Notes: generated from the sequence alone by a model not told the origin. Counted from the first letter of the stretch, positions 40,388-48,215 are shown. The stretch is 64,000 bases of DNA from an uncultured Chloroflexia bacterium (GCA_963717065.1 CAVQVC010000001.1:199643-263642); one strand, 5' to 3'. Made by a program: numbers and translations.

Positions 40388-41608
40388 CTACTGCGCCACT
40401 TCCACCAGCTCCACATCAAAGATCAGCGTCGCGTTCGGAGGTATGCTGTCGCCTTGCCCCGTCTCGCCGTACGCCAGCGATGCCGGGATCACCAGCCGCC
40501 GCCTGCCGCCTTCCTTCATCCCGGCCACGCCGATGTCCCAGCCCTTGATCGCTTCGCCCTTTCCCAGCGTGAACGCGAATACGCGCGGTTGTGACTGGTC
40601 TGTCCCCAGTGACGTGTCAAAGCGCTTTCCGTCCGCCTGCAACCAGCCTGTATAGTGCATGGCCACCAGACTCCCGGGCGCGTCTGCCGTTCCCCCAACC
40701 GCCTCGTCGCCCGTCCCCTCAACGATGTCGGCTGCGATCACGCCGCCCTCAAGCTCCCGTTCCGGGGCTGTCACCGTCGGTGGGCTTTCAGGTGACGGGT
40801 CGCTCACTGCCAGGAGTCGAACGTCGAACCCGATCGTGGCGTTCGCCGGAATCGGACCCTGGCCCTGCTCTCCATACCCCAGTTCCGGGGGAATGATAAG
40901 CGTCCTCTGCCCCCCGACAGCCATGCCCTCGACTCCTTCTTCGAACCCGGGGATCAATGAATCTGCTCCGACGATGAACGCCAGCGGCACCTTCCCCACC
41001 GAGGAGTCAAACTCCGTGCCGTCTGCCAGTTTGCCGGTGTAATGCACGGTCGCCGTCTGCCCGGCCTGCGGCGTGTCGCCGGTTCCGACGACGACGTCCA
41101 TGTACTGCAGGCCGCTGTCTGTCTCTGTGAACCCCTCCGGCACTCCCTTGTCGTCGTCCGTCAGCGTCATCGCCAGCACCCCGATTCCTGCGACCAAGGC
41201 CACAATCCCGCCCACCAGCAGCGCAATTCCGCCTATCAAGGCGCCGTCGACGCCCTTGCTGGTCGGCGGCGCCGGAGCCGGCTCGCCGGTAGGGGATGTC
41301 TCATCAGCATCCGCGATGGCGACCTCCTCGCCCGCCGCTGTCACGGCCGCGACGCTTGCACGTGACTCCCACACCGGGGGAGTCGCCTCTGCCGCGCTCC
41401 GCGTTCGGTCGTACTCCGCCCGCTTGTCGGTGTCGTCGAGGACGTCGAATGCCTCGTCGATCTCTCGCATCCGCTCCGGGTCCGAGGGTTCCGCGTTCAC
41501 GTCCGGCTGTAGCTCCTGAGCCAGCCGCTCGTACGCCGACTCTATCTCTTCGGCACTCGCGTCCGGGCGGACGCCCAGTGTTTCGTAGTAGTTCTTCGCA
41601 GCGTTCAT
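40388..41608 (-). CDS. J-domain protein with one TM helix and two FKBP-type peptidyl-prolyl isomerase domains
   Basis: N-terminal YYETLGV...EIESAYERLAQE J domain. TM helix ALIGGIALLVGGIVALVAGIGVL. Two FKBP domains (TVHYTGKL..DG..FDSS.. and AMHYTGWL..DG..FDTS..). Confidence 0.8.
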   Translation of the reverse strand: MNAAKNYYETLGVRPDASAEEIESAYERLAQELQPDVNAEPSDPERMREIDEAFDVLDDTDKRAEYDRTRSAAEATPPVWESRASVAAVTAAGEEVAIADADETSPTGEPAPAPPTSKGVDGALIGGIALLVGGIVALVAGIGVLAMTLTDDDKGVPEGFTETDSGLQYMDVVVGTGDTPQAGQTATVHYTGKLADGTEFDSSVGKVPLAFIVGADSLIPGFEEGVEGMAVGGQRTLIIPPELGYGEQGQGPIPANATIGFDVRLLAVSDPSPESPPTVTAPERELEGGVIAADIVEGTGDEAVGGTADAPGSLVAMHYTGWLQADGKRFDTSLGTDQSQPRVFAFTLGKGEAIKGWDIGVAGMKEGGRRRLVIPASLAYGETGQGDSIPPNATLIFDVELVEVAQ

Positions 41609-42513
41609 GGACTTGGACTTACCTCCGCTGTGGGCGCGGGTGTCGCGGCCGCGGTTGGTGCCGGAGTCGCGGCCGGGAATATCTCGACCACTTCGACATC
41701 GAAAATTAGCGTCGCATTAGGCGGAATCGTTCCCTGGCCGGAAGCGCCGTAGGCCAGCTCCGGAGGAATAATCAGTCGCCGTTTGCCGCCCTTCTGCATC
41801 GTCGCCATGCCTTCGTCCCAACCCTTGATCACGCTTCCTGCCCCCAGGACGAACGAAAACGGCTCCGTGTTGTCGATTGAGCTGTCGAACATTGTCCCGT
41901 CCGACTGTAGCCAGCCCGTGTAATTCACGGCCAGCTTGTCGCCGTTCACGGCCGTCCCTCCCGCTCCTGGCGCGATGTCGATGTATTGCAGTCCGGATGC
42001 GGTCGTCACCGGCTGTCCCTCCACCGGAGGTGGCGATGCTGGAGGCGTGCCCGGCGTTTGCGGTGGAATCGTGGCTGTCGGCCCGGGTATGACAGTCGTG
42101 GTGGGCTGGGCGACGACGGCGTCGCTCCCGCCACCGCCTCCGAACAGCGAGACCGCTACGATCGCTCCCAGTATCACCACTACACCCAGCGCCGAGATCC
42201 CCGCGAACACGTACGGGTTGTCGAGCCAGTCCCAGAACTTCTGTCCCGCGGCTTTAACCCCCGTCGCTGGAGGCGGCGCCTCACCCGGCCGGTAGCCCTT
42301 CGCCCGAAGACGGTCGTACTCGGCCCGTGCCTTCGGGTCGCTCAGCACTTCGTACGCTTCGTCCAGCTCCTGCTTGCGCTCCGAAGCGCGGCGCTTGCGG
42401 CTTGTCTCCGGATCATAGACCTTCGAAAGCCGTTCGTACGCTGCCTCGATCTCTGCCGGCTTCGCCGACGGATTCACCTGCAATATCGAATAGTAGTCTC
42501 TACTGGTTGGCAC
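41605..42513 (-). CDS. J-domain protein with one TM helix and one FKBP-type PPIase domain
   Basis: DYYSILQV...EIEAAYERL J domain. TM helix VFAGISALGVVVILGAIVAVSLF. Pro-rich linker. FKBP domain LAVNYTGWLQSDGTMFDSS...GWDEG. Paralog of the downstream gene, 4-nt overlap. Confidence 0.8.
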   Translation of the reverse strand: MPTSRDYYSILQVNPSAKPAEIEAAYERLSKVYDPETSRKRRASERKQELDEAYEVLSDPKARAEYDRLRAKGYRPGEAPPPATGVKAAGQKFWDWLDNPYVFAGISALGVVVILGAIVAVSLFGGGGGSDAVVAQPTTTVIPGPTATIPPQTPGTPPASPPPVEGQPVTTASGLQYIDIAPGAGGTAVNGDKLAVNYTGWLQSDGTMFDSSIDNTEPFSFVLGAGSVIKGWDEGMATMQKGGKRRLIIPPELAYGASGQGTIPPNATLIFDVEVVEIFPAATPAPTAAATPAPTAEVSPSP

Positions 42514-42649
42514 TTCTCTCCCGTCTCCCCATGAAATATGCGGGCCGCATCCCCCCAGGCGCGCGCCCGCCTGTCTCCAATTGTATCGAAAGCTCGCCCT
42601 AGCCTCTAACCACTAACGTCTAACCCCTCCATCACGTACCCTGTTTCTC

Positions 42650-44246
42650 GTGCCCGAGTCCGAACTCCCGCTCCTGATCCAGGACCTCTTGCGCCCGGAG
42701 GCCTACCCACACCCCGCGGGTGAGATCCAGCTCATCCAGACTCACATCTCCTACGTTCTCATCGCCGGGGATCACGTCTACAAGATCAAGAAGCCGGTGA
42801 ATTTCGGGTTCCTGGACTTCTCGCACTCTGTCGCGCCGCCGTCATTTCTGTCGCAAAGAGGTCGAGCTCAATTCTCGTCTATGTTCGGATACGTACCTCG
42901 GCGTCGTTCCGGTTCGCCGCACGCCCTCCGGTCACGCTTTCGATGGCCCCGGCGACACCGTCGAGTACGCCGTCCACATGCGCCGCCTCCCCGCCGATCG
43001 CATGATGGACACGCTCCTGGAGCGCGGCGAGGTCACTACGGCGATGATCGAGGCGCTCGCCGCTAAGCTCGCCGCCTTTCACGCGACCGCTGAAACGAAT
43101 CCGCGCATGGCCGCCTACGGCGACTGGGCTATCCGCTACAACCAGCGCGAGAACGAGGACCAATGGGCGCCCTACGTCGGCCGTGTGCTCACGCCCGAGC
43201 AGGACCGCATCCTGCGCGCCTACACCGAGGCCTTCTTCGCGCGCAAAAGAACGTCCTCGCAGCGGCGCGTCGAGCGAGCTGCGCATCCGCCGCGTCCACG
43301 CCGACCTCCGCTCCGACGCCGTCTGCTTCACCAACGGCATCTGCGTCTTCGATTGCGTCGAGTTCAACCGCCGCATCAACGTCCTCGACGTCGCCCGCGA
43401 CACCGGCTTTCTCGCCATGGACCTCAAGTACCGAGGCCACGACGGGCTGGCCGCCGACTTCACCCGCGCCTACCTCGCCGCCGCGCAGTGATCCGGACCA
43501 CGAGGAAGTCATCGACTTCTACGCCATGTACAGTGCCTGTGTCCGCGGCAAAGTCGAGGCATTCCTCCTCGACCTCCCCGAGATATCCGATAAACAGAAG
43601 CGCGCGGCACAACAGGCCGCGAGCCGATACTTCGACCTCGCCTGCCAATACGCTGCGTCGCTTCCCCCCGCGATGCTTGTGATCACCTGCGGCCTCGCCG
43701 GCAGCGGCAAGTCCTCGCTCGCACGCGCCCTCGCGCCCGCCGGATTCGAGGTTCTCTCCTCAGACGTCGTCCGCAAGCAGCTTGCGGGCGTCGAACCGTC
43801 CGAGCACCGCTACGAGGAGTTCGAGAAGGGCATCTACGCCGGCGACACCACCGAACGCACGTACGCCGCTCTGCTGGATCAGGCTCGTCCTCTGCTCGAA
43901 CGGGGCCGCTCCGTCGATCCTCGACGCCTCCTTCCTCCGCCGCGACCACCGCCGCCGCGCCGCCCGCCTCGCGAAAGACACCGGCGCCCAGTTCGCCTGC
44001 CTCTACCTCGAAATCGACGACGCCACCGCGCGCGCCCGCATCGAACAGCGCGTCAAAGAGGGCGGCGACCCCTCAGACGCCCGCTGGCTCGTTTACCGCG
44101 GCCAGAAGCGCCGCTTGCAGAAACCCTCCGAAGTCCCCCTGGACCGCCTGGTCACCCTGGACGCTTCGCGCCCCGTCGCGCACCAGAGACGCAGCGCGAT
44201 CAAGGCGTTACGCGCGATATCCCCGCTATCGCTGGCGATCGGCTGA
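42650..44246 (+). pseudogene. bifunctional aminoglycoside-phosphotransferase-like kinase / AAA_33 P-loop kinase (Rv2004c-like), 4 frameshifts
   Basis: N-terminal THISYVLIAGDHVYKIKKPVNFGFLDFS. Kinase catalytic loop RVHADLRSDAV. C-terminal LVITCGLAGSGKSSLARAL Walker A. Pieces lie in frames 2/0/1/2/0. Confidence 0.65.
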
Positions 44247-44301
44247 TTCGCACGCACCTGTGAATAACGTTCGGTGCGGGTGCCTGATTAGATTCCCCTG
44301 G

Positions 44302-45290: not shown

Positions 45291-45726
45291 AGCTTTGCGA
45301 AACACCATCTGTCATCTCGATCGCGGGAATCATCTCTCGCTCGAACTCCCTTAGCCGCTCCGGCCCTAGCTCCTCGATCCGCGCCAAACACGCCCCAACC
45401 TCCAACACCAAGCCCTCCACATCGATTCCCAAACAGACCGGTCTGTACGGCTCCATTAGCCGCAGCGAGTCCGACAGCAGGTTCACCGCCCCCTTGTAGT
45501 TGTCCCGCAGCACATGGTGGAACCCCGCCGCCGCCTTGATCAACCCCTGGTAGAAGTTCGTCGCCCCCGCCGGCTCCCCCTTCGCCCCCGACTCCCGCCA
45601 CACGTCCTCCAGCGTCTCGTGGCAATCGTAAAACCGCCACGAATTAAACTCCTCTACCGCCTTCCGCAGCTCCTCCATCGCCTCCGGCGACACCTCAATT
45701 GACGCTGCCCTTGAACTCATGCCCAT
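45289..45726 (-). CDS. DUF309 domain protein
   Basis: EFNSWRFYDCHETLEDVWRE signature of DUF309. Start uncertain (the ORF extends to 45843). Confidence 0.55.
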   Translation of the reverse strand: MGMSSRAASIEVSPEAMEELRKAVEEFNSWRFYDCHETLEDVWRESGAKGEPAGATNFYQGLIKAAAGFHHVLRDNYKGAVNLLSDSLRLMEPYRPVCLGIDVEGLVLEVGACLARIEELGPERLREFEREMIPAIEMTDGVSQS

Positions 45727-45808
45727 AGCGTTGCCGTTTGCGATGAACCCGTCAAGCCGATACCCGGCGGAACGAAGTTCCATTCGATGCGCTGCTACAA
45801 TTGCTTCG

Positions 45809-46702
45809 ATGAAGATCGTGGGTCTTGGGGCATGCGCATTCATCGTCCTGGCGAGCTTTGGAGTCGTCCTCTGGAAATCCTTGTCTGCTGAAACCGAGTC
45901 GGACGATGTCGTGCAGTACTCACAAGATCCTCGCGATGTGATAGAAGCGAGCGTCGCAAAATTCGAGGATCTGTCCTCATACAGCGTCTTGATCTCATCG
46001 AAGACGGCAGAAGACGAGATTCTGACGAAGACGGAAGAATATTACGCGACCATTGACGTGCGGTTGCCGTCCTGGACTCACCAGACCGTCTACAACCACA
46101 ACTTTGAGGCGGTCACCAATGGCGAGAGTGCCTGGATCGAGGACTGCGCCGGCGCCGCGCAAGATTGCGAATGGGTGAAGTGGCCCTATAGTCAGTACAT
46201 CGTGTCCAATCCCGGGGATCCGTTCGAAGAGACGTATGGCGTCGTCGCGCTCGATATGTCCAGCGATGTCGAAATACTTGTAGTGACGGAGGGAGATCGC
46301 CCCCTAGCCAATTTGAGAGGAACCGTCAATCCGGTGCGAGTAGGCATCGAGAACTTCGTTCGCCAACAAGCCGCAGCACAAGGCGCCATGACTATCGGAC
46401 AACACTGTGGCCAGGAGATCCCGGATGCTCCAACCCCCGTTCCCGGGTCGTGTCCAGACCTTGGCGCGGTACTTCAACAATTGCTCGGCCCGGGGGCCGC
46501 CGGTGTGCGTTTCTACGACGACCATCCGGCTACACTGTACGCTGTGATCGACCTTGACAGACTTCAGATAAAGGAAGTGTCCATCTCCGCCGAGCAGGCG
46601 CCCGAATCTGGCGGATTGTACTGGTTTCAAGCGAGCTACTCGGGCTTCAACGACGTGTCCGTTGAACCCCCGGCCAACGCACGTGACTACGACGCCAGTT
46701 AG
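45809..46702 (+). CDS. membrane-anchored hypothetical protein of atypical (lower) GC content
   Basis: N-terminal TM MKIVGLGACAFIVLASFGVVLW. No known domain. GC visibly lower (about 55%) than flanks. Confidence 0.5.
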   Translation: MKIVGLGACAFIVLASFGVVLWKSLSAETESDDVVQYSQDPRDVIEASVAKFEDLSSYSVLISSKTAEDEILTKTEEYYATIDVRLPSWTHQTVYNHNFEAVTNGESAWIEDCAGAAQDCEWVKWPYSQYIVSNPGDPFEETYGVVALDMSSDVEILVVTEGDRPLANLRGTVNPVRVGIENFVRQQAAAQGAMTIGQHCGQEIPDAPTPVPGSCPDLGAVLQQLLGPGAAGVRFYDDHPATLYAVIDLDRLQIKEVSISAEQAPESGGLYWFQASYSGFNDVSVEPPANARDYDAS

Positions 46703-46985
46703 TAGATTCTCGCGCTGTCCGTGCTACCCTGTGCCCATCCGTGGCTAACCAACCCGACCCCGCCGAGCTCGCCATCGCCAATGCCCTCTTCGCCTCCGTC
46801 GCCGACGAGATGGGCGTCACTCTCGGCCGCACCGCGCACTCCCCCAACATCAAGGAGCGGCGCGACTACTCCTGCGCAGTCTTCGACCCCAGCGGCCGCC
46901 TCGTCGCCCAGGCCGCGCACATCCCAGTCCACCTCGGCGCTATGCCCACCGCCGTCGAAGCCGCAATCAATGCCGCTCACCCTGA

Positions 46986-47050
46986 GGAGTCCCTTCGGTC
47001 TCGCAGAGCGGGGGCGAAGGGACGTCTCGAAGGGTTAAGCCCCGGCGACA
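46986..47050. repeat. intragenic palindromic repeat (variant with CTCACCCTGAGG start and GTCCCTTCG/CGAAGGGAC stem) adding 20 aa to HyuB
   Basis: In-frame insert EESLRSRRAGAKGRLEGLSP between the conserved AINAAHP and GDIVILNDPY. Confidence 0.5.
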
Positions 47051-47146
47051 TCGTCATCCTCAACGACCCCTACCTCGGCGGCACCCACCTCCCCGACATC
47101 ACCATGGTCTCCCCCGTCTTCCTTACAAACCCGTCCACGCCTCGAT

Positions 47147-47208
47147 CCGCTCGCCCTGAGGTTCTCGTAGGGCGAGCGGCTGCACAACGGTCCGAACCGG
47201 TACTCATC
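47147..47208. repeat. intragenic copy of stem-loop module CCGCTCGCCCTGAGGTTCTCGTAGGGCGAGCGG (12-bp perfect stem)
   Basis: Adds about 25 aa (TNPSTPRSARPEVLVGRAAAQRSEP) to HyuB. Confidence 0.6.
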
Positions 47209-47604
47209 GGCTTCGTCGCCTCCCGCGCCCACCACGCAGACGTCGGCGGCATCTCCCCCGGCTCCATGCCCATCGCCGAGGAGCTTACCCAGGAAGGCGT
47301 CGTCATCCCCCCGATCAAGCTGTACGACCGCGGTCGCCTCAACCAGCCCGTCCTCGACCTCCTCCTCCGCAACATGCGCGCCCCCGACGAACGCCGCGCC
47401 GACCTCGACGCCCAGATCGCCGCCAACCGCACCGGCGAGGCCCGCCTGCGCGAGATCATCGACCGCTACGGATTGCGCCGCTCGCAGCAACTGATGCGCG
47501 CCCTGATGGACTACGCCGAGCACATGACCCTCGCCGCCATCGCCGCCATCCCCGACGGCGCCTACACATTCGAAGACTTCCTCGATGACGACGGCAGCGA
47601 ATCT

Positions 47605-47727
47605 GTCATTATGAGGGACGAAGAATCCGGGGGGGTGGGGCCAACGCCTCGAATCACCACAACGTCGCGATCCGCTCGCCCTGAGGCACTCGTAGGGCGA
47701 GCAGCGGCAGAACGTCCCGAGTCAGGT
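47605..47727. repeat. intragenic full-length repeat copy (GTCATTATGAGG... plus CCGCTCGCCCTGAGG stem-loop), about 123 bp
   Basis: Adds about 45 aa in frame (SESVIMRDEESGGVGPTPRITTTSRSARPEALVGRAAAERPESG). Confidence 0.65.
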
Positions 47728-48102
47728 GACCCCATCCCGATTCGCGTCACCGTCACCATCTCCGGCGACACCCTCCACGCCGACTTCACCGGCTCCGCCC
47801 CCGAGCGTCCCACCTCCATCAACGCCGTCGCCGCCGTCACCCGCTCCGCCGTCTACTACGTCGTCCGCTGCCTCCTCGACGACAGCGTCCCCTCCAACGA
47901 CGGCTGCTTCCGGCCCGTCACCGTCACCCTCCCCGAGCGCTCCGTCGTCAACGCCGGCCCCCCGCGCGCCGTCGCCGCCGGCAACGTCGAGACCTCCCAG
48001 CGCATCACCGACGTCGTCCTCGGCGCCCTCTCGAAGGCCCTCCCCGACGTCATTCCCGCCGCCTCCCAGGGCACCATGAACAACATCACCATCGGTGGAA
48101 AT

Positions 48103-48215
48103 GTCATCCTGAGGCACGAAGGATCTGGCGAGGAGGGGTCGACGCTCCGTTCCAGCGAGATGCCCCGACTCGCTCGCCCTGAGGAATCGAAGGGCGAGCG
48201 GCAGTGACAACGCCT
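48103..48215. repeat. intragenic full-length repeat copy, about 113 bp, containing the frame break/stop of hyuB
   Basis: GTCATCCTGAGGCACGAAGGATCTGGCG...CGCTCGCCCTGAGGAATCGAAGGGCGAGCGGCAGTGA. Confidence 0.65.

Follow-up and report, generated by a model that had tools for sequence, protein, structure and literature searches.

A gene pair from Chloroflexota predicted to encode membrane-tethered FKBP foldases with HPD-less J-like domains

Two adjacent genes on the minus strand of a 64,000-nucleotide stretch of DNA from an uncultured Chloroflexia bacterium (GCA_963717065.1 CAVQVC010000001.1:199643-263642; the whole stretch is called the window here) encode proteins in which a J-like domain is joined through a single transmembrane (TM) helix to FKBP-type peptidylprolyl isomerase (PPIase) domains. 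The upstream gene, B, occupies positions 41605-42513 and the downstream gene, A, positions 40388-41608. A first-pass annotation of the same DNA had proposed that the two proteins couple recruitment of Hsp70 in the cytoplasm to prolyl isomerisation on the far side of the membrane. The general layout of the proteins was as described there, but the J-like domains of both lack the two features of a working J-domain. The explanation that we favour, with a probability of roughly 0.6, is that A and B are a translationally coupled, membrane-tethered pair of extracytoplasmic FKBP foldases with pseudo-J domains as their cytoplasmic modules.

The J-fold was well preserved in both proteins. The J-like domain spans residues 6-67 in each (A, 41408-41593; B, 42313-42498; every feature of the pair lies on the minus strand) and is predicted to be cytoplasmic. 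Pfam DnaJ scores were 64.1 bits for A and 59.1 bits for B, against a cut-off of 27.8 bits. AlphaFold2 models built from orthologue alignments placed four helices, with the helix II/III hairpin, at canonical positions: residues 7-11, 19-33, 44-58 and 60-74 in A, and residues 7-11, 19-32, 43-58 and 60-71 in B. Predicted local distance difference test (pLDDT) values over the fold were 91-97 in A and 90-96 in B.

The His-Pro-Asp (HPD) triad was absent from both domains. In gapless alignments to DnaJ2 of T. thermophilus, 'ELQPDVN' of A and 'VYDPETS' of B stand opposite 'QYHPDVN', and residues 34-36 read Q-P-D in A (CAG CCG GAC, 41501-41509) and D-P-E in B (GAT CCG GAG, 42406-42414); gapless alignments to CbpA and DnaJ likewise revealed no HPD. 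Integrity of this motif was a test that the first-pass annotation had set for its own proposal, and the motif is lost in both genes. The glutamine of the A motif was conserved in all 23 QP[D/N]-type domains, and the aspartate of the B motif in 99% of 101 DPx-type domains, whose third position is variable. Replacement of the histidine of HPD by glutamine is the classic inactivating (null) change of textbooks. According to a 2026 review, QPD or HPN leads to total loss of Hsp70 ATPase stimulation and HPE alone is tolerated (PMC13254874).

The second feature, a basic helix II that docks on the nucleotide-binding domain of Hsp70, was also missing. Net charge was summed over the positions equivalent to E. 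coli DnaJ 17-32, with 48 HPD-bearing J-domains as controls. The controls averaged +2.3 (minimum 0), compared with -1.4 for the QP[D/N] type, -0.3 for the DPx type and 0 for B of the window. At the position of E. coli K26, 40 of 48 controls carry arginine or lysine, whereas 22 of 24 QP[D/N] domains carry glutamate or aspartate. With HPD replaced and helix II not basic, the J-like domains of A and B should not be able to activate Hsp70 and, specifically, should not stimulate the ATPase of DnaK. The absence of these two defining features places A and B outside the functional classes (A-C) of J-domain proteins (JDPs). Judged from sequence, they are type IV pseudo-JDPs by the operational definition, with a recognisable J-domain and a non-conservative replacement of HPD. 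J proteins of this kind, called type IV or pseudo-JDPs, have a selective status that 'remains enigmatic' (PMC13254874). The proposed Hsp70 recruitment was thus not supported, coupling of Hsp70 to the foldase is unlikely in its simple form, and a Pfam DnaJ match should not be equated with Hsp70 recruitment.

Loss of HPD had been expected to mark a degenerate J-domain, an expectation that the conservation of these domains contradicts. The J-like domain was the best conserved region of both proteins: mean identity in the A family was 63% for the J-like domain, 53-54% for the FKBP domains and 16% for the linker, and in the B family it was 74% for the J-like domain and 66% for FKBP. Each type has acquired its own near-invariant residues (E. 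coli numbering): D33, S37, K40, A43 and R46 in the DPx type, and Q33, P41, P44, D51, F54, D55 and D58 in the QPx type. These newly fixed residues lie on helix III and in the apical loop, on the face that a canonical J-domain turns towards Hsp70. The highest conservation in the protein, together with newly fixed residues specific to each subfamily, argues that the J-like domains are not decaying; on these figures they are under strong purifying selection.

The electrostatics of the domains were also unusual. The J-like domain of A is strongly acidic, with a net charge of -13 over residues 6-69 (mean of QPx domains, -9.0), and DPx domains carry a basic apical patch over E. coli positions 36-48 that averaged +4.1 (+4 in B of the window) compared with values near 0 in controls. 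The strong conservation, the newly fixed apical residues and the unusual electrostatics together suggest a repurposed interaction surface.

The absence of HPD extended across the family. Two homologue searches, with A and B as queries, returned 114 distinct proteins that fuse DnaJ to FKBP. Among 118 fusion J-domains aligned by hidden Markov model (HMM), 88 were of the DPx type, with E, A, S, D, G, Q, K or T at the third position, 23 were QP[D/N] and 6 were HPD. An independent sample came from HMMER, run exhaustively over 1.84 billion cluster representatives (50% identity) with the J-like domain of B as query: all 13 FKBP-fused representatives were without HPD, whereas at least one HPD was kept in 121 of the 137 non-fused matches. 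About 40 ordinary J-proteins from other phyla, caught by the same DNA pattern in a genome scan, served as a natural control, and all had HPD.

A rough neighbour-joining tree (about 65 columns, no support values) placed the four fusions with a single, HPD-bearing J-domain as a grade at the base of the A clade, with QPD derived and QPN nested within QPD, which suggests a stepwise change from HPD to QPD to QPN. A separate tandem arrangement, QPD followed by QPH, was seen in P0235. A DPE-type J-like domain was also found joined to TPR repeats, with no FKBP, in a Roseiflexus metagenome-assembled genome (MAG; L042:5773-6966), so fusion to FKBP is not a strict rule for HPD-less J-like domains of this kind.

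The first-pass annotation had asked how widely the fusion is distributed. It proved to be a recurrent architecture and not a one-off, and it was restricted to one phylum: among reference contigs with one genome per species, every occurrence lay in a MAG of the Chloroflexota (labels: Dehalococcoidia, Chloroflexia or Chloroflexota). The reference genomes contained 16 loci, of which 15 were DPx plus FKBP and 1 was HPE plus FKBP. The public label of the fusion proteins is merely 'peptidylprolyl isomerase'. A literature search for a J-domain and FKBP fusion, covering Chloroflexi, Dehalococcoidia, membrane-anchored PPIases and surveys of JDP architecture, found no paper.

Each protein contains one strong hydrophobic segment (residues 122-150 in A and 101-130 in B; Kyte-Doolittle maximum about 2.7). 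The TM helix of B, at about residues 100-125 (42139-42216), reached a Kyte-Doolittle value of 2.72, was modelled as a helix over residues 100-124 and is predicted to be an N-in signal-anchor; that of A, at about residues 122-151 (41156-41245), reached 2.69 and was modelled over residues 125-151. To assess orientation, lysine plus arginine (K+R) were counted in the 15 residues before and the 15 residues after the TM segment of 116 fusion proteins. Mean K+R was 1.54 on the N-flank and 0.10 on the C-flank, with more on the N-flank in 92 proteins, equal numbers in 23 and fewer in 1. The C-flank was acidic across the fusion proteins. B of the window carries 2 on the N-flank and 0 on the C-flank.

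The relatives of the FKBP module pointed the same way. Of its 118 closest relatives without a J-domain, 71 have a lipobox-like leader and 35 another hydrophobic leader; with such leaders on 106 of 118, the FKBP module belongs to an exported lineage. Neither A nor B has an N-terminal signal peptide able to carry a charged J-fold, about 100 residues long, across the membrane. The single TM segment, the positive-inside bias and the exported lipoprotein relatives support the predicted topology, with the J-fold inside and the FKBP domains outside (N-in/C-out), as had been proposed before.

The Pro/Ala-rich linker that had been described between the J-domain and the TM helix was present only in A. 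There, a disordered linker rich in Ala, Pro and Glu lies before the TM helix on the cytoplasmic side (about residues 75-121, 41246-41386), and pLDDT fell below 50 over residues 75-132. The disordered linker of B is instead rich in Pro and Thr by composition and follows the TM helix on the extracytoplasmic side (residues 126-170, 42004-42138; pLDDT below 50 over residues 126-140).

Three FKBP domains, all predicted to be extracytoplasmic, make up the C-terminal parts of the two proteins. B has one, at residues 171-278 (41680-42003; Pfam FKBP_C 119.5 bits; pLDDT 94-98). A has two, with a combined FKBP_C score of 202.6 bits: the first at about residues 160-270 (40799-41131; pLDDT 95-97) and the second at about residues 291-404 (40397-40738; best Pfam stretch 310-402; pLDDT 94-98). 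The FKBP12 pocket residues Y26, F36, D37, I56, Y82, I91 and F99 were kept in all three. B keeps V55 and W59 as well, for a pocket of Y26 F36 D37 V55 I56 W59 Y82 I91 F99; the first domain of A shows the changes W59F, F46L and V55L, and the second keeps W59 and has V55A. All three domains look catalytically competent from their pocket residues.

The FKBP domain of B matched Burkholderia Mip in Foldseek with 58% identity, a root-mean-square deviation of about 1 A and a TM-score of up to 0.95 (target-normalised); LpMip and FkpA were also matched. With the full-length B model as query, Foldseek matches were mainly to the FKBP domain and gave no information on the J-like domain. A and B share FKBP type, pocket and extracytoplasmic location with FkpA of E. 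coli and Mip of Legionella and Burkholderia. However, the signal peptide of FkpA and Mip is cleaved off, and their N-terminal helical dimerisation domain shares the FKBP side of the membrane, whereas the N-terminal helical domain of A and B is a J-fold on the opposite side of a TM anchor that looks uncleaved, and A has two tandem FKBP domains. Scores against the NCBIfam FkpA-type models NF008150 and NF008602 were below the cut-offs of 215 and 198 (A, 152.8 and 127.4; B, 108.7 and 81.7), and only the C-terminal FKBP part of these full-length models was aligned.

Identification of A as BamJ was rejected. A scored 121.4 bits against the BamJ equivalog model, NCBIfam NF053689, above the cut-off of 100, but this score sums two FKBP domains, and the alignment covers positions 98-184 of the 184-position profile, which is the FKBP part only. 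B scored 66.8 bits, below the cut-off. The summed score of A could prompt automated mis-naming.

The two genes are arranged for coupled translation. B is a 302-codon open reading frame (ORF) with a GTG start that encodes a DPx-type pseudo-J domain, a TM helix and one FKBP domain; A, transcribed after it, has 406 codons and an ATG start and encodes a QPD-type pseudo-J domain, a TM helix and two FKBP domains. The stop codon of B and the start codon of A overlap by 4 nt in ATGA (41605-41608; the junction reads CC-ATGA-AC), and an identical overlap of -4 was found at locus L062. The adjacent, overlapping genes of 302 and 406 amino acids (aa) and their domain layout therefore stand as first described, with Pfam, Kyte-Doolittle hydropathy and AlphaFold2 in agreement on the layout. 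The models had a mean pLDDT of 83.5 for B and 84.8 for A, the latter with a predicted template modelling score (pTM) of 0.66; in both, a four-helix J-fold is followed by the TM helix and the FKBP domain or domains. Scans for promoters and terminators at the locus found nothing.

In the public annotation the start of B (P0121, 290 aa) is placed too late by 12 codons in comparison with the GTG at 42513 (region 42478-42513), which removes helix I of the J-fold. We favoured the GTG because homologues keep the longer N-terminus ('RDYYSILQV') and because a purine-rich, Shine-Dalgarno-like GGGAGAGAA lies directly 5' of it (42514-42522). Both genes are intact, full-length and collinear with their orthologues, to which B showed 56-69% and A 45-60% identity. 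As paralogues, A and B share 38% identity over J-like domain, TM helix and first FKBP; the FKBP domain of B is 54% identical to the second FKBP domain of A.

The pair recurs as a unit. On six contigs (the window, L002, L062, L063, L064 and L065) the A-type gene always lies directly 3' of the B-type gene, at a spacing of -4 to +34 nt. The upstream gene is DPx with one FKBP domain; the downstream gene is QPD with two FKBP domains, or HPD in L064. In that last case (L064:2641-4664) a DPA-type J-like gene is paired with an HPD-type, apparently genuine J gene, and this combination may represent the pair's ancestral state.

We propose the following mechanism. A and B would be type-II (N-in/C-out) membrane proteins that hold three FKBP domains at the outer face of the cytoplasmic membrane, where, tethered in this way, these domains most likely help newly exported proteins to fold, as foldases or chaperones. 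Lipoprotein PrsA has this task in Firmicutes, TM-anchored PpiD has it in E. coli, and FkpA/Mip are a further example. A J-fold domain plus signal-anchor helix would thus take the place of the lipoprotein leader found in the closest FKBP relatives, and the pseudo-J domains would provide for docking or assembly on the cytoplasmic side. Our preferred guess, a tentative one, is that the acidic domain of A pairs with the basic-patch domain of B, much as Pam16 pairs with Pam18; the conserved gene pair, the DPA and HPD combination of L064, the tandem-J fusions P0011 and P0170 and the complementary charges all echo such pairing. Alternatively, the J-like domains may attach the two foldases to a partner in the cytoplasm or at the translocon. 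We infer the outside location, the PPIase or foldase activity, the inability to activate Hsp70 and the A:B pairing from these features.

Several observations weigh against this reading. HPD is kept in four single-J fusion proteins (P0048, P0077, P0094 and P0098); the metagenomic proteins P0011 (458 aa) and P0170 (465 aa) place an HPD J-domain before a QP[D/N] J-like domain, a TM helix and two FKBP domains; and the L020 fusion carries HPE. With HPD or HPE in some members, parts of the family may still be linked to Hsp70. Hsp70 can also be stimulated by a designed J-domain analogue that has no HPD (PMC13254874), which makes absence of the motif strong but not absolute evidence. At 14 of the 15 DPx-type reference loci there is no QPD-type partner, and the DPx protein usually has two FKBP domains; since the DPx gene is so often without a partner, A:B pairing is not a universal role of the J-like domain. 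A of the window carries one K+R residue on each flank of its TM segment, so its topology rests on an acidic C-flank ('DDDKG', conserved in orthologues) and on the family statistics. Finally, the first-pass annotation had suggested looking for secretion or envelope genes near the pair; neither these nor chaperone or Sec/yidC genes were found in the neighbourhood in the window or at the syntenic loci.

In the rough tree the extra HPD domains of the tandem-J proteins sit on branches of their own, away from the QP[D/N] domains, and so look like separate additions. As a side observation, P0011 and P0170 resemble a covalent Pam18-Pam16 pair.

A first alternative, which we consider unlikely, is that the pseudo-J domains act like Pam16, by analogy, and bind either a genuine J-protein or Hsp70 itself without activating it. 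A and B would then gather the DnaK system at the site of export, or hold it in check there, and would not be co-chaperones themselves. Both ideas have been named as possibilities for type IV JDPs (PMC13254874). Like Pam16/Tim16 and DnaJB13, which are also type IV, A and B combine a J-fold with a non-conservative replacement of HPD. The likeness extends further: Pam16 is membrane-associated and paired with Pam18, and relatives of A and B are paired (L064) or fused (P0011, P0170) with an HPD J-domain. The J-like domains are the best conserved parts of the proteins, and their new residues fall exactly on the surface formed by the apical loop and helix III. However, the window encodes no genuine J-protein partner near the pair, and Pam16 has a signature (DKE/DKS) unlike either QPx or DPx, which are themselves dissimilar. 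A and B are moreover bacterial, linked by a TM helix to enzyme domains outside the cytoplasm, and HPD-less in both partners; the homology seen to Pam16 is that of the generic J-fold, and the alternative is drawn wholly by analogy.

A more speculative and somewhat less probable version, likewise an analogy, would make A and B an inside-out counterpart of Pam16/Pam18. The pseudo-J domains would pair with each other, capture DnaK-DnaJ or the translocon, or do both, with no activation of the ATPase, and cytoplasmic events would thereby be physically registered with the three FKBP foldase domains on the outer face. If so, the HPD to QPD to QPN series and its rising conservation would represent positive retention of a 'dead' J-domain.

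We regard it as improbable that A and B carry working J-domains that recruit DnaK, trigger its ATPase and couple Hsp70 action to prolyl isomerisation of the same exported client; in the mechanism outlined above, a still-functional J-domain is the least likely of the functional alternatives. The Pfam DnaJ scores well above cut-off, the confident J-fold and the topology all fit such a role. Basal A relatives keep HPD, L064 pairs an HPD protein with a DPx protein, and two relatives set an HPD J-domain before the QP[D/N] domain, which together suggest ancestral or occasional involvement of Hsp70. In A and B themselves the histidine is absent (QPD and DPE), and QPD is the canonical null (PMC13254874). 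Helix II, the element for docking on DnaK, is acidic or neutral, and the third position of DPx drifts freely. Neither dnaK, grpE nor any other J gene was found in the window or at the syntenic loci, and the 64-kb window held no further J-domain, FKBP or Hsp70 signature.

Doubtful to a similar or slightly greater degree is the idea that the J-like domain is an inert cytoplasmic 'stopper', soluble and stably folded, that only fixes the N-in orientation of the signal-anchor, leaving the TM anchor and FKBP as the sole working parts. The closest FKBP relatives manage with a simple lipoprotein leader, and the nearest HPD-bearing J-domains in the exhaustive search (P0286, P0372 and about 8 more) belong to proteins with the same layout of J-domain, single TM helix and ectodomain. 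Their ectodomains are a Big_7 Ig domain (P0286), a Kelch propeller (P0372) or unannotated, and the class is apparently uncharacterised. With J(HPD)-TM joined to such unrelated ectodomains, the J-domain plus TM helix behaves as a portable N-terminal anchor cassette. These proteins differ from A and B in their retained HPD, their Pfam DnaJ scores (72-83 compared with 59-64 bits) and their non-FKBP ectodomains. An inert stopper does not fit with a J-like domain at 63-74% identity when the catalytic domains stand at 53-66%, nor with invariant surface residues specific to each subfamily and extreme, complementary charge.

That both domains lie on the same side of the membrane (all cytoplasmic or inverted), or that the genes are decaying pseudogenes or assembly artefacts, is highly improbable: four frameshifts in a neighbouring gene raise a concern over local sequence quality or gene decay, but A and B are themselves undamaged, and the very high TM hydrophobicity, near-unanimous charge bias, exported lipoprotein relatives and lack of a signal peptide speak against a same-side arrangement.

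The predicted foldase pair has partial parallels among known membrane-tethered proteins. The Bacillus lipoprotein PrsA and the PpiD-YfgM pair of E. coli are, as is predicted for A and B, PPIase-type foldases tethered to the membrane on its trans side. PpiD and YfgM are both anchored by an N-terminal TM helix and form a heterodimeric periplasmic chaperone pair at SecYEG (PMC9643414), a parallel to the conserved A/B gene pair. PrsA and PpiD are, however, parvulins and not FKBPs, and have no folded cytoplasmic domain; the likeness is in concept only.

DjlA, DjlB and DjlC of E. coli resemble A and B in holding a J-domain at the cytoplasmic face by a single TM tether. In DjlA the order differs, with the TM helix N-terminal and the J-domain C-terminal, and none of the three has an extracytoplasmic catalytic domain, unlike A and B. 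The NCBIfam DjlA model gave a weak match, with 14.1 bits against a cut-off of 162. DjlA keeps HPD; DjlB and DjlC keep HPE and work with HscC (PMC13254874). The parts of A and B, an FKBP foldase, a TM anchor and a pseudo-J domain, are each already known.

These proteins form a sizeable uncharacterised family, found here in Chloroflexota only, of predicted membrane-spanning foldases whose best conserved part is a pseudo-J domain. Selection on HPD-less J-domains is regarded as open by the field (PMC13254874), and the natural intermediates of this family (HPD, HPE, QPD, QPN, DPx and HPD plus QPD tandems) offer a system in which to ask what type IV J-domains are selected for. The family also hints at how monoderm-like Chloroflexota may tether extracytoplasmic folding catalysts. 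We know of almost no experimental data on such catalysts in this phylum.

The syntenic surroundings of the pair consist of a dUTPase gene, a divergent APH/AAA_33 gene, the pair itself, an acyl-CoA dehydrogenase or alpha/beta-hydrolase gene and a DUF2203 gene; a GDPD gene is also present. These are syntenic housekeeping genes only, and genomic context was rejected as a clue to function.

In two other genomes a leaderless FKBP12-like gene of about 113 aa directly follows the fusion gene in frame (L012:7213-7554 and L019:3586-3927). Stop-codon read-through into these ORFs was ruled out, as each has its own Shine-Dalgarno sequence and ATG. Genes for exported and cytoplasmic FKBPs therefore adjoin in some genomes; the window has no such leaderless gene.

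The divergent APH-like and AAA_33 neighbour of the pair in the window (42650-44260, plus strand) is split into five collinear pieces, which lie in frames 1, 2, 3, 1 and 2. Comparison with the intact L013 homologue (relatives have about 547 aa) placed four frameshifts, all in the same direction, near 42824, 43274, 43486 and 43916. The gene is intact in L013 and L062-L064 (529-558 aa), and the broken copy is either a pseudogene or the product of assembly indel errors. Further along, a Hydantoinase_B/oxoprolinase ORF (46741-48207, plus strand) matches only positions 1-366 of the 519-position profile, and the 327-aa ORF that precedes it (45719-46702) has no Pfam match. This region could be another truncated or frameshifted gene.

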